This document shows, one piece after another, positions 14,684 through 19,238 of a DNA stretch of 32,000 nt. The stretch spans positions 510,001 through 542,000 of the forward strand of contig CP095464.1 of assembly GCA_021294815.2 (NCBI GenBank). Direction: 5' to 3'. The DNA comes from Verrucomicrobiota bacterium. Its GTDB lineage: Bacteria > Verrucomicrobiota > Verrucomicrobiia > Opitutales > LL51. The notes beneath the pieces are model-generated. The model did not search any database, was not told where the DNA came from, and saw only the letters and a program-made list of their open reading frames with translations. A program made the position numbers and the translations under genes. Numbering within the stretch: the first letter of the stretch is position 1; each line of letters begins with the position of its first letter.

Positions 14684-15382
14684 ATGCGCATCGATCTGAT
14701 ATCACTTTTTCCGGATATGCTCGATGGGTTTATGGCGTCATCGATTTTAGCGCGGGCGCAGAAACAAGGTTTTTTAGAATATCACAAACACAATTTACGG
14801 CAGTGGTCCGAGAATAAACATTTCAAGGTAGATGATCGACCGTTTGGGGGTGGTGCAGGGATGTTATTACAGCCCGGACCGGTTATACGTGCGATCCAAG
14901 CGTTACGGACGGAGGAGAGTTGTGTGATTTATCCCTGTCCGGATGGGGTACCGTTGACGACGGAACAGGTACAGATTTTAGCGCAACATACGCATCTGAT
15001 TTTTTTATCGGGGCATTATGAAGGACTCGATCAACGGGTTCGTGACCGGTACATTGATCAAGAATTTTCTATTGGTGATTATGTTTTAACCAATGGGACG
15101 TTAGCTGCAGCGGTGATGATTGATGCGATTTGCCGTTATATTCCAGGGGTTTTAGGTAATAATGTTTCTCTTGAACAAGATTCACTGAGCGATGGGCTTT
15201 TAACGTTTCCGCAGTATACACAGCCCCGGGAATTTGAAGGAATAACGGTACCGGAAGTGCTTTTAAGTGGGAATCATGCGGAAATTGATCGCTGGCGATA
15301 TGCGCAACGTTTGGAAAAAACCCGTCAACGGCGTCCCGATTTATGGGCGAAATACATCCAATCGCATAACGACGGCTCGTAA
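14684..15382 (+). CDS. trmD: tRNA (guanine37-N1)-methyltransferase
   Basis: 232 aa. [13 protein letters not shown]..., [54 protein letters not shown]: classic TrmD blocks. Confidence 0.92.
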
Positions 15383-15423
15383 AAAAGTTTGACTCAGAGA
15401 GGGACTTTCTCAAACCTAGGCGT

Positions 15424-15774
15424 ATGAACCGCATCATTGAGGAATTGACCGCGAAACAGCTCATCGCGGGGCGTGATCATTTCAAAGTCGGCGATGGCGT
15501 CCGGGTCCACGTGAAGGTACGCGAAGGCGATAAGGAGCGTATTCAGATTTTTTCGGGTATTGTAATCGCCAAAAAGCACGGTGGGATTTCCGAGACCTTT
15601 ACGGTACGCCGTGTGGTTGCGGGCGAAGGTGTTGAGCGGGTATTCCCTAAAAACTCACCGAGTATCGCGAAGATTGAGGTGGAGCGTGAAAGTATTCCGA
15701 TGCGCGCGAAGCTCTACTACATCCGGAAGCGGATTGGTAAGGATGCGATGAAGGTCCGGGAGCGGAAACGCTAG
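15424..15774 (+). CDS. rplS: 50S ribosomal protein L19
   Basis: 116 aa. FKVGDGVRVHVKVREGDKERIQIFSGIVIAKKHGGISETFTVRR...GVERVFPKNSPSIAKIEV. Conserved trmD-rplS adjacency. Confidence 0.93.
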   Translation: MNRIIEELTAKQLIAGRDHFKVGDGVRVHVKVREGDKERIQIFSGIVIAKKHGGISETFTVRRVVAGEGVERVFPKNSPSIAKIEVERESIPMRAKLYYIRKRIGKDAMKVRERKR

Positions 15775-15775
15775 G

Positions 15776-16141
15776 ATGGTTGAGTTTGCCGTTATTGTTA
15801 AAGCGGTCATCTTCCTGGTGCTCTTAGCACTTGGAGGATACTTTTTTGTTCTCTTTCGTCGTCGCAACTGGTTTTTAACGGCGGAGCATAAGGACAAAGG
15901 TCCGGATACGCTCCAGGTGGTCCGGCAACTACCGATCGGGGGGCGCAGTTCATTAGCGATCATTCGTTGTAATCAACAAAAGTTTCTGATCGGAGTGAGT
16001 CCCTCAGGCATTACCGCGATTGGAGAGCTCCAGGCAACACCGACGGACAGTGCTTCATTTGGTAAAATTGGGGCTATCAATACCTCCTATGTGGTGAACA
16101 CACCGCCCGGGGAGTCTGCGGGGAAAAGCGAGACTGAATAA
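15776..16141 (+). CDS. Single-pass membrane protein resembling FliO (type III export-gate assembly factor family)
   Basis: 121 aa. One TM helix (AVIFLVLLALGGYFFVLF) is followed by a basic stretch, then LQVVRQLPIGGRSSLAIIRCNQQKFLIGVSPSGITAIGEL. This parallels Salmonella FliO LKVSASASLGPRERVVIVEVENARLVLGVTASQINLLHTL, recalled from memory. It starts 1 nt after the rplS stop. Confidence 0.5.
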   Translation: MVEFAVIVKAVIFLVLLALGGYFFVLFRRRNWFLTAEHKDKGPDTLQVVRQLPIGGRSSLAIIRCNQQKFLIGVSPSGITAIGELQATPTDSASFGKIGAINTSYVVNTPPGESAGKSETE

Positions 16142-16191
16142 CGGATATTTTTTGTTTTCACCCAATGATGTTTTTGCCAGGATGATGATTC

Positions 16192-17040: not shown

Positions 17041-17068
17041 TTGCTATCTTTCAAAAAATCATTACAAG
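17041..17068 (+). promoter_or_regulatory. Weak candidate internal promoter upstream of sctS
   Basis: TTGCTA (17041-17046), a 16-nt spacer, TACAAG (17063-17068), 21 nt before the sctS ATG. The -10 is poor, and the gene may instead be read through from prmC. Confidence 0.2.
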
Positions 17069-17089
17069 TAGTGGCTGGATAGGGGTGGT

Positions 17090-17359
17090 ATGGATCAGGA
17101 TTTCATCATCAACATTACGGAGCAGGCGATGTTGCTCGTGCTCATCCTCTCGATGCCTCCGATCTTGATTGCGACTTGCGTCGGGTTAATGACGAGCCTA
17201 CTCCAAGCCCTAACGCAGATCCAGGAACAGACGCTGAGTTTCGCGATCAAACTCTTTTTCACCGTACTCGTCCTGTCGCTTTCGGCGTATTGGATTGGTG
17301 ATCAGCTGATGGCCTTTGCGAACTTCTTGTTTACTTCATTTGCGACGATTATCCGATGA
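17090..17359 (+). CDS. sctS: Type III secretion export-gate protein SctS (YscS/CdsS/FliQ family)
   Basis: 89 aa. LLVLILSMPPILIATCVGLMTSLLQALTQIQEQTLSFAIKL is nearly the YscS block LSMPP.L.A..VG...SL.QALTQIQEQTL.F.IKL. It is less like the FliQ version. Confidence 0.88.
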   Translation: MDQDFIINITEQAMLLVLILSMPPILIATCVGLMTSLLQALTQIQEQTLSFAIKLFFTVLVLSLSAYWIGDQLMAFANFLFTSFATIIR

Positions 17360-18144
17360 ATCCAGGGATCCAATACCTCGGCGGGGTGCTCATGATGATG
17401 ATGCTCTGCCTTGTGCGTCTCGCCGCGGCGCTTTCGTTGACGCCAGTTTTCGCGAAGCAGTACATTATGGGAACGGGACGAAATGTTGTGATCTTAGCGA
17501 TGGCACTTCCGCTATTTTACACGGTTTTCCCGGAATGTCCATCGACGCAGCTTCCGATTTCGATCCTGATTTTAACGATCTGCAAAGAAGTGATTATTGG
17601 AGCGCTTTTGGGATATCTTTCGGGCTTTATTTTTTACGCTGCGGATAGCGTCGGGTTTATTATCGATATTCAACGGGGATCGTCGATGGCGATGACGTTT
17701 GACCCAGTTGCGGGTTCACAGACCTCCTTAATCGGTAGCTTTTTGACGCAGATGATCGCAACGCTGTTTTTTACGATGGGGGGATTCTTGTTCTTCCTCG
17801 GACTGATCTACCAGACCTACATTATCTGGCCGGTTTTCGGGTTTTATCCGACATTTGACGCCAATTTCCCAGCATTTGTGATGTCCTTTGTCGACGATCT
17901 CATGGAGGTTATTTTCTGTTTTTCAGCTCCGATTCTCCTTGTTTTATTTCTCTCGGAATTTGGACTCGGTATGATCAGTCGGTTCGCGCCGCAGCTAAAC
18001 GTATTCTTTATGGCGATGCCGGTCAAGAGCTGGCTATCGATGTTTTTTTTACTGTTTTACTTTTCGTTGCTTGGAGAACTGTTCCACTACTACTTCTTTA
18101 CGCAGAGTAAGATGGCGTTGTTCGTCAATAAGGTGTTTCATTAA
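17356..18144 (+). CDS. sctT: Type III secretion export-gate protein SctT (YscT/CdsT/FliR family)
   Basis: 262 aa, polytopic membrane protein. ATGA overlap with the sctS stop. The position and length fit the S-T-U order. N-terminal ...LTPVFAKQYIMG... resembles YscT. Confidence 0.8.
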   Translation: MNPGIQYLGGVLMMMMLCLVRLAAALSLTPVFAKQYIMGTGRNVVILAMALPLFYTVFPECPSTQLPISILILTICKEVIIGALLGYLSGFIFYAADSVGFIIDIQRGSSMAMTFDPVAGSQTSLIGSFLTQMIATLFFTMGGFLFFLGLIYQTYIIWPVFGFYPTFDANFPAFVMSFVDDLMEVIFCFSAPILLVLFLSEFGLGMISRFAPQLNVFFMAMPVKSWLSMFFLLFYFSLLGELFHYYFFTQSKMALFVNKVFH

Positions 18145-18146
18145 CG

Positions 18147-19238
18147 ATGGGAGAAAAGACTGAAGAGCCGACACCGAAAAGAATCCGCGATGCCCGGAAT
18201 AAAGGGAATATCGCCAAGAGTCAGGACGTTACCTCGACCGCAACCCTCATCGGTGCGTTTTGTTTTGTCGGCCTCGGTTGGGATTCACACCTTAATGATC
18301 TGGCCGAGCTTATGCTCATTCCGACGGTTTTTATCGGCAACTGTAACCTTGCGGACTACAAAGATCAAGTTCTCTGGGCGGTTGTGGCCAAATCGGGAGC
18401 GATCATTACGCCTTGTCTTGCGATGGTTGCGCTGATGGGGCTCATTGCGAATTTTGCGCAAGTGGGACTTTTATTTACGACGCAGCCGATTATGCCGGAT
18501 CTCAACAAGATCAATCCGATATCGAAAGCGCAACAGATGTTTTCGATGAAAAATATCGTTGAGATGCTCAAATCGACGGTCAAAATTTTATTTCTCGGAT
18601 TTTTAATTTATGGTCTCATCAAGAGTGTTTTTGATGACTTGTTGCTCTTGCCGTACTGTGGATTAGGGGGTGTGTTTAGTATTTTAGGTCCGGTGATGAA
18701 GGACTTTGCGAAGCTCGTGATTTTCGCATACATTGCGGTTGCGGCGGTCGACTACGCCTACCAGAAATACAACTGGAAGCAACAGCTTATGATGAGTAAG
18801 GACGAGATCAAGCAAGAGTACAAAGAATCCGAAGGTGATGGGCAGGTCAAAAGTAAACGTAAGCAGATCCACCAGGAGATGATGGAGGAAGACCCGCCAC
18901 AGCGCACAAAACACGCATCCGCTTTAGTCACAAACCCGGAGCACGTCGCCGTTGCATTGCTCTATAATTTCGAACAACCGATTTTTCTTCTACCGATTGT
19001 ATTGGCGAAAGGCGTAGGAAGGGTCGCCGAAGAGATGATCAAAGTCGCTAAAGACGAAGGGATTCCCATTGTCCGGAACGTTCCACTCGCTCACGCACTA
19101 TTGGATACTTCCCAAGTCATGCGCTACATTCCGCGCGAACTCATTCTTCCGGTTGCCGAAGTCCTCCGCTGGGTCAAAGAAGCTCGCTCCCCGCAGTATC
19201 AGGGCCCGCTCATTCGGGATGATGAGGACAATTTTTAA
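18147..19238 (+). CDS. sctU: Type III secretion autoprotease / substrate-specificity switch SctU (YscU/CdsU/FlhB family)
   Basis: 363 aa. The N-terminus MGEKTEEPTPKRIRDARNKGNIAKSQD matches the YscU/CdsU signature. Four TM segments, MSKDEIKQEYKESEGD, the autocleavage region VTNPEHVAVAL (NPEH at 18933-18944, canonical NPTH), and the C-terminal IVRNVPLAHALL...IPRELILPVAEVLRWV. Confidence 0.9.
   Translation: MGEKTEEPTPKRIRDARNKGNIAKSQDVTSTATLIGAFCFVGLGWDSHLNDLAELMLIPTVFIGNCNLADYKDQVLWAVVAKSGAIITPCLAMVALMGLIANFAQVGLLFTTQPIMPDLNKINPISKAQQMFSMKNIVEMLKSTVKILFLGFLIYGLIKSVFDDLLLLPYCGLGGVFSILGPVMKDFAKLVIFAYIAVAAVDYAYQKYNWKQQLMMSKDEIKQEYKESEGDGQVKSKRKQIHQEMMEEDPPQRTKHASALVTNPEHVAVALLYNFEQPIFLLPIVLAKGVGRVAEEMIKVAKDEGIPIVRNVPLAHALLDTSQVMRYIPRELILPVAEVLRWVKEARSPQYQGPLIRDDEDNF

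Follow-up and report, generated by a model that had tools for sequence, protein, structure and literature searches.

Injectisome export-gate genes adjoining a trmD-rplS-prmC block in a reduced genome of the order Opitutales

Genes of the string and the whereabouts of sctR

The DNA considered here, referred to throughout as the window, is a stretch of 32,000 nucleotides (nt) from a Verrucomicrobiota bacterium of the order Opitutales, and corresponds to positions 510001-542000 of the single 878,461-bp contig (CP095464.1) that represents this genome (95.6% complete). Its subject of interest is a string of seven open reading frames (ORFs) on the plus strand, in which the injectisome export-gate genes sctS, sctT and sctU stand directly behind genes concerned with translation. 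The order is trmD, rplS, a FliO-like gene, prmC, sctS, sctT and sctU, with gaps of 41, 1, 50, 52, -4 and 2 nt. The string is headed by trmD (window positions 14684-15382), which encodes the tRNA (m1G37) methyltransferase (TIGR00088, 292.5 bits against a cut-off of 195), and continues with rplS for ribosomal protein L19 (15424-15774; TIGR01024, 126.3 bits against 90.7), a FliO-family gene of 121 amino acids (aa) (15776-16141; PF04347, 45.6 bits against a gathering threshold of 22) and prmC, also called hemK (16192-17037; TIGR03534, 275.2 bits against 199.1), whose product, the release-factor glutamine methyltransferase, has its catalytic motif NPPY intact at residue 188. The gate genes that follow are sctS (17090-17359; TIGR01403, 91.1 bits against 76.5), which encodes an export-gate subunit of the injectisome; sctT (17356-18144; TIGR01401, 204.2 bits against 163.05), whose start overlaps the stop codon of sctS in the sequence ATGA; and sctU for the switch protein (18147-19238; TIGR01404, 376.4 bits against 358). 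A preliminary description of this DNA had listed exactly these seven genes and these gaps, and the identities that it assigned hold in the profile searches.

The products of sctS, sctT and sctU are of the injectisome type: all three exceed the NCBIfam equivalog cut-offs for that type and score better there than with the flagellar models, and with the flagellar FliQ, FliR and FlhB models all three fall below the cut-offs (for FliQ, 74.8 against 88.9 bits). The autocleavage motif of SctU reads NPEH (residues 263-266, window positions 18933-18944) in place of the usual NPTH, with the N, P and H kept. NPEH is fixed in the SctU proteins of the family to which the window genome belongs and is also found in a further relative, G022, while NPTH occurs in G017, G025, G029 and G034.

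The gate gene that is absent from the string is sctR. No FliP/SctR homologue is present in the 32-kb window, as the preliminary description had stated, and the only copy in the genome lies at genome positions 571445-572092, 44 kb beyond sctS. This distant SctR is intact and of the injectisome type (TIGR01102, 270.2 bits against 208.6), and the start of its gene, near 571.4 kb, overlaps the end of a SctQ-like gene, which bears out the earlier suggestion that sctR had been relocated. A whole-genome search for sctR, sctV and sctN, as proposed in the same description, located all three at separate loci (571, 101 and 261 kb, respectively); sctJ, at 264 kb, shares the locus of sctN, and sctC lies at 772 kb (TIGR02516, 331.7 bits against 238). 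SctR, SctV, SctN, SctJ, SctQ and SctC are all encoded by the window genome, and the core secretion genes tested have open frames with no internal stops. There is one SpoA-domain match in the genome, and a domain search of the genome found no flagellar rod genes or rod domain. All core parts of the injectisome are present, dispersed among five or more loci, and it is the sole type III system in this genome. At the 3' end of sctR an rsmG-like ORF on the opposite strand overlaps the gene convergently by ~160 nt (positions 1951-2112 of locus L001, genome ~571.9-572.1 kb); the tail of this ORF is the source of false "rsmG" hits that run antisense to sctR in all of the relatives.

Downstream of sctU, and also on the plus strand, lies an orphan ORF of 250 aa (19300-20052) with no Pfam or NCBIfam match. 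The slot that it occupies varies among species, and in relatives sctU and marC are separated by anything from ~90 nt to 1.9 kb. In the window marC, which encodes a membrane protein of the MarC/NAAT family (20100-20792, plus strand; PF01914, 123.2 bits), is followed by the first terminator-like hairpin after the string (20803-20824, plus strand), a 9-pair stem and then a T-run, situated between marC and the convergent gyrA. Across the genus marC remains downstream of sctU, including in G004, a species in which the string is interrupted.

Spacing, a promoter-like element and synteny among relatives

Close spacing of genes on one strand is common in this genome. Same-strand neighbours are separated by a median gap of 26 nt, 72% of these gaps are 60 nt or less, and runs of at least nine co-oriented genes account for one quarter of all genes; the tight spacing of the trmD-sctU string is thus the norm for the genome and not beyond chance expectation. 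A pattern scan found no terminator-like hairpin on the plus strand between trmD and sctU, in agreement with the earlier statement that no convincing terminator lies between these genes, and this absence carries little weight, as the scan finds no more terminators in the real sequence than in shuffled sequence (10 versus 10.3). At the junction of sctS and sctT, where the spacing ranges from -4 to about +16 nt in all of the relatives read, the ATGA overlap suggests translational coupling of sctT to sctS. In Salmonella a stem-loop lies at the 3' end of sctS; in contrast, folding of window positions 17270-17385 gave no significant stem-loop of the Salmonella type that would hide the ribosome-binding site of sctT (z = -0.37).

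The spacer between prmC and sctS contains a conserved sigma-70-like element (17038-17069, plus strand), with the -35 sequence TTGCTA at 17041-17046, an A/T-rich spacer of 16 nt, and the -10 sequence TACAAG at 17063-17068; the -35 element starts 3 nt past the prmC stop codon. The preliminary description had noted a weak promoter candidate at 17041-17068, and this site coincides with the element, which is orthologously conserved: in 12 of the 12 species of the genus that were compared, a motif of the form GCTTGCYAT, A/T-rich spacer, TAAAAA occurs 44-70 nt before the sctS ATG, although PrmC identity among these species is only 46-50% and the remainder of the prmC-sctS spacer does not align. When a weight matrix was built from ten other species, with the window genome and its near-twin G002 excluded, the window site ranked 7th of 1.76 million genome positions, and the same matrix found no comparable site in the other spacers of the trmD-sctU string. 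Further sites with high scores are found 35-100 nt ahead of gene starts. Because upstream regions as a whole are enriched in TTGACA, AAAATT and TAAAAA, and because the matrix also matches housekeeping genes, the element is read as a predicted promoter of the organism's ordinary sigma-70 type. A secretion-specific promoter was considered as well. The best non-self match of the matrix lies 40 nt before an acidic ORF of 138 aa with no family match (genome positions 771587-772043), which sits immediately before sctC and is possibly a chaperone-like gene at the head of the sctC operon. Several further matches precede orphan genes, but with the hexamers enriched generally this candidate was rejected.

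The arrangement in the window was compared with that in a sample of 40 relatives. Within the genus, whose genomes measure 0.6-1.1 Mb, the order FliO-prmC-sctS-sctT-sctU is common to 11 species, with trmD and rplS upstream wherever the contig extends far enough. Species G004 departs from this order: its block of trmD, rplS, FliO-like gene and prmC has prmC as the last gene, with dnaX next to it in convergent orientation, and sctSTU and marC are found on a separate contig behind a divergently transcribed gene. A promoter must therefore exist in front of sctSTU in G004, and the conserved element precedes sctS there too, despite the different upstream gene. The same rplS-FliO-prmC-dnaX end was found in G012 on a short contig; sctT was not found in G012, the assembly of which is 78% complete. 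In the sister genus trmD-rplS-FliO-prmC is kept and followed by a convergent bamA-like gene, and sctSTU is located elsewhere, behind another housekeeping gene and with a TTGATA...TATAAT-like site of its own. In G015 as well, prmC is the last gene of the block and a convergent gene comes after it. The linkage from trmD to sctU is thus kept in 11 species, has been broken in G004 and apparently in G012 as well, and occurs neither in the sister genus nor in more distant relatives. In a maximum-likelihood tree computed from six concatenated proteins of the locus, the window genome and G002 form the base of the genus and G004 and G012 are nested inside it (UFBoot, i.e., ultrafast bootstrap, 89), from which the simplest history would be a single attachment of sctSTU behind prmC in the common ancestor of the genus and a single detachment in the G004/G012 lineage. 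The preliminary description had ventured that the housekeeping block is the older part and that the gate genes joined it later, which agrees with the finding that in both the sister genus and G004/G012 trmD-rplS-FliO-prmC is not joined to sctSTU; hemK/prmC, trmD and rplS are presumably neighbours in Chlamydia trachomatis also.

The separation of sctR from sctSTU extends beyond the genus. The canonical order sctQ-R-S-T-U is found in G017 and G025, which are among the larger genomes of the order, and in G022, G023, G029, G034 and G035 the sctQ-sctR and sctSTU units lie on different contigs (in G035 only sctT was recovered, at a contig end). Rooted on the flagellar paralogues, a tree of SctRSTU has poor resolution in its deep branches (support 52-63%), and its one firm clade comprises only the family of the window genome together with G022 and G034, all of which have the split arrangement. 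At this low level of deep support the tree does not distinguish between one separation of sctR from sctSTU and several.

The FliO-family gene

In flagella, FliO assists the assembly of FliP. The FliO-like protein of the window has an N-terminal membrane helix, followed by basic residues and then a conserved soluble block, and scores below the cut-off of the flagellar equivalog TIGR03500 (42.9 against 55.25 bits). It is the only FliO in the genome, and its gene is not adjacent to fliP/sctR, having rplS and prmC as its neighbours and sctR at a distance of 45 kb. The gene begins 1 nt after the rplS stop codon and directly follows rplS in both genera of the family, and its ratio of nonsynonymous to synonymous substitution rates (dN/dS), 0.16-0.30 in species pairs, indicates purifying selection. 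In view of the 1-nt gap to rplS and of the FliO-prmC spacers, which are short and carry no conserved motif, the FliO-like gene is the part of the string that is really tied to a ribosomal-protein gene.

The distribution of FliO was surveyed in 151 genomes of the order with a profile made from these FliO-like proteins and with the SctT model; since the surveyed genomes are related to one another, the counts are not independent. An injectisome-type SctT is encoded by 39 of the 151, and seven of these 39 also have a flagellar-type FliR. Among the 32 injectisome-only genomes, 30 carry the FliO-like gene in a single copy, the two exceptions being assemblies that are 80% and 87% complete, and the carriers span at least eight families. 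By comparison, a FliO match was found in only two of the 75 genomes that lack a SctT/FliR match at E <= 1e-20, and one of these two (G038) has a flagellar fliP-fliQ cluster. Six of the seven genomes with both machines have a single FliO beside the flagellar fliR, and no second copy was found in the three two-machine genomes searched with a dedicated profile; the lone FliO of such relatives, although sited in the flagellar cluster, might serve both machines. The FliO-like gene of G017 directly follows sctU and is encoded on the opposite strand. Seven or more families of the order are made up of genomes of 0.8-1.4 Mb with an injectisome and without a flagellar-type FliR, in what looks like a broad radiation of reduced and probably host-dependent Opitutales.

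The FliO-like proteins resemble flagellar FliO and the FliO of other injectisome-only genomes to similar extents, with pairwise identities all of 25-33% and overlapping profile scores, and such short sequences point to no particular origin of the gene, a lost flagellum included. We regard it as possible, if rather doubtful, that in the reduced injectisome-only Opitutales the FliO-family protein is a working assembly factor for SctR that was inherited from a lost flagellum and that is here expressed from the rplS operon.

The occurrence of FliO outside flagella has already been published, and the present case is a new lineage of a known phenomenon. FliO homologues have been described in non-flagellar secretion operons of the Myxococcota and some Pseudomonadota, and in the Chlamydiia outside secretion operons, in an operon with mqnB and mqnD (PMC12403147, PNAS 2025); the main text of that paper does not mention the Opitutales. 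The window genome resembles those cases in having a FliO-family gene in a flagellum-less genome with an injectisome, and differs from them in the position of the gene between rplS and prmC. What is new is the retention of the gene in nearly all of the injectisome-only genomes sampled from this order, which makes a possible role of FliO in the assembly of the injectisome gate testable outside the Myxococcota.

Two adjoining units, alternative explanations and known systems

The observations are best explained, with a good deal of confidence on our part, by two units that lie end to end in a compact genome: a housekeeping operon, and an autonomous sctSTU cassette with its own predicted promoter, belonging to an injectisome that is intact and scattered. 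The first unit would be the trmD-rplS-FliO-prmC operon, conserved across the family and ending at prmC in some relatives. The second would be the cassette of sctS, sctT and sctU, followed here by the orphan ORF and marC, which came to sit behind prmC in the ancestor of the genus. The cassette would be transcribed from its own sigma-70-like promoter, and some additional transcription may arrive by read-through from prmC, since the -35 element starts only 3 nt past the prmC stop codon and no terminator was found between the two genes. SctT, and probably SctU too, would be translationally coupled to the gene before it, through the ATGA overlap and the 2-nt gap, respectively. SctR would be made from the separate sctQ-sctR unit 44 kb away, and SctR pentamers formed elsewhere would receive SctT, SctS and SctU in the membrane, with the FliO-family protein probably assisting SctR assembly as FliO does that of FliP. 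The link between sctSTU and the translation genes is a genus-level and breakable one, and is probably incidental.

Several points weigh against this explanation. The promoter ahead of sctS is a conserved, consensus-like element and not a mapped transcription start, and its -10 sequence in the window, TACAAG, is weaker than the TAAAAA of the relatives and lacks the usual final T. With no terminator between prmC and sctS, a single long transcript could be produced. The species tree was built from the genes of the locus themselves, and its key node has 89% support. The part given to the FliO-like protein in SctR assembly is drawn from homology and co-occurrence only.

The preliminary description raised the possibility that gate-gene expression is coupled to that of ribosomal and translation-factor genes. 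In its strict form this would make the whole string one obligate operon, in which sctSTU has no effective promoter to itself and depends entirely on read-through from trmD/rplS, so that the supply of gate proteins tracks ribosome synthesis. The genes do lie on one strand with short gaps and no terminator-like hairpin before 20803, a polymerase leaving prmC would run into sctS, given how closely the -35 element follows the prmC stop, and the linkage has been kept in 11 species. Such gaps are normal in this genome, however, and the terminator scan is uninformative; there is a conserved promoter-like element before sctS, the same element stays with sctSTU behind a divergent gene in G004, and the sister genus has another upstream gene and a promoter-like site of its own. 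The prmC-sctS link has, moreover, come apart naturally, with the genes themselves retained. Dependence of the gate genes on the ribosomal operon is weakened by these observations, and we consider an obligate operon unlikely.

The flagellar order fliO-fliP-fliQ-fliR invites another explanation, namely that FliO-prmC-sctS is the remnant of an ancestral fliO-sctR-sctS-sctT order from which sctR was excised and in which prmC, as the preliminary description also remarked, now occupies the position of fliP/sctR. This is quite improbable, since rplS-FliO-prmC occurs without sctSTU in G004, G012, G015 and G016, such that the FliO-prmC pairing is independent of the gate genes. In G017 and G025, which keep sctQ-R-S-T-U, sctQ directly precedes sctR (within ~10 nt in tblastn maps), with no FliO gene visible in between; the FliO-like gene of G017 stands after sctU on the other strand, and the 50- and 52-nt spacers flanking prmC in the window leave no room for remains of sctR. 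That the gate genes are instead the decaying leftover of a non-working secretion system that lost sctR might be suspected from a genome of only 878 kb in which they are isolated from the other secretion genes. This suspicion is scarcely credible when all of the core genes tested are present in open frames free of internal stops, and when SctS and SctT are 78-82% identical across species of the genus whose PrmC proteins share only 46-50% identity. The explanation that we prefer thus remains that of two adjoining units, and under it the original puzzle is mostly removed: no gate gene is lacking, and there is no need to postulate a new connection between secretion and translation.

The split between sctR and sctSTU is a rare arrangement that has already been listed, and the finding is real but ordinary. 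In a survey of 848 injectisome clusters the order sctRSTU is kept in 83.8%, and the class termed sctR-STU accounts for 0.9% (bioRxiv 10.64898/2026.02.19.706803). That class is defined by an sctR more than 500 bp from sctS or on the other strand, with sctS, sctT and sctU on one strand and gaps of less than 500 bp. The window genome falls within it, with sctR 44 kb from sctS, a contiguous same-strand sctS-sctT-sctU with gaps of -4 and 2 nt, and a tight, ATGA-type sctS-sctT junction. Whereas the published class was counted in NCBI reference genomes with no lineage described, the arrangement here belongs to a clade of reduced-genome Opitutales/Puniceicoccales; a search of one literature collection for the secretion systems of termite-gut Puniceicoccales found nothing specific. 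In Salmonella, secretion falls by only 14% when a spacer is introduced between sctR and sctS and by 96% when it is placed between sctS and sctT; a deletion of sctR is complemented in trans by sctR alone about as well as by constructs with other gate genes, to roughly half of the wild-type secretion, with protein accumulation and complexes like those of the wild type (bioRxiv 10.64898/2026.02.19.706803). The break in the window genome is therefore at the one junction that was found to be dispensable in Salmonella. It amounts to a natural repeat of that experiment, in which sctR has proved separable from sctSTU over long evolution while sctS-sctT stays tight, and it speaks for the view that the sctS-sctT junction alone is under constraint.

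A second parallel is offered by Chlamydia, whose type III genes are reported to lie in ten operons with sigma-70-like promoters, the sctU operon ending in the housekeeping gene malQ (Hefty and Stephens 2007, as cited in PMC12095286). Both are injectisomes of small-genome, host-associated members of the PVC group whose units are split among housekeeping genes, each behind a promoter of the general type, and in Chlamydia some secretion units share a transcript with housekeeping genes. The partition of the genes differs, in that Chlamydia keeps sctR-S-T together (in sctJ-K-L-R-S-T) and pairs sctU with sctV, whereas sctQ-R and sctS-T-U form the units here. The chlamydial transcription has been mapped, whereas the transcription units described here are predicted ones.

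At its other end the string is bordered by atpA, which is divergent and lies upstream of trmD with only ~80 nt between them (14604-14683). In G009 this interval measures ~2.3 kb (L024 2897-5255) and encodes an orphan exported-type protein of 615 aa, and G010 has an atpA-trmD gap of similar size and probably of the same content. The gene rpsP is not upstream of trmD in the window and is located at ~253 kb in the genome; it precedes trmD in G015 and G022. The cumulative GC skew of the whole genome has its minimum near 458 kb and its maximum near 876 kb, from which it is likely that the window lies shortly after the origin of replication and that its plus strand is the leading strand, which by itself favours the plus orientation of these genes.

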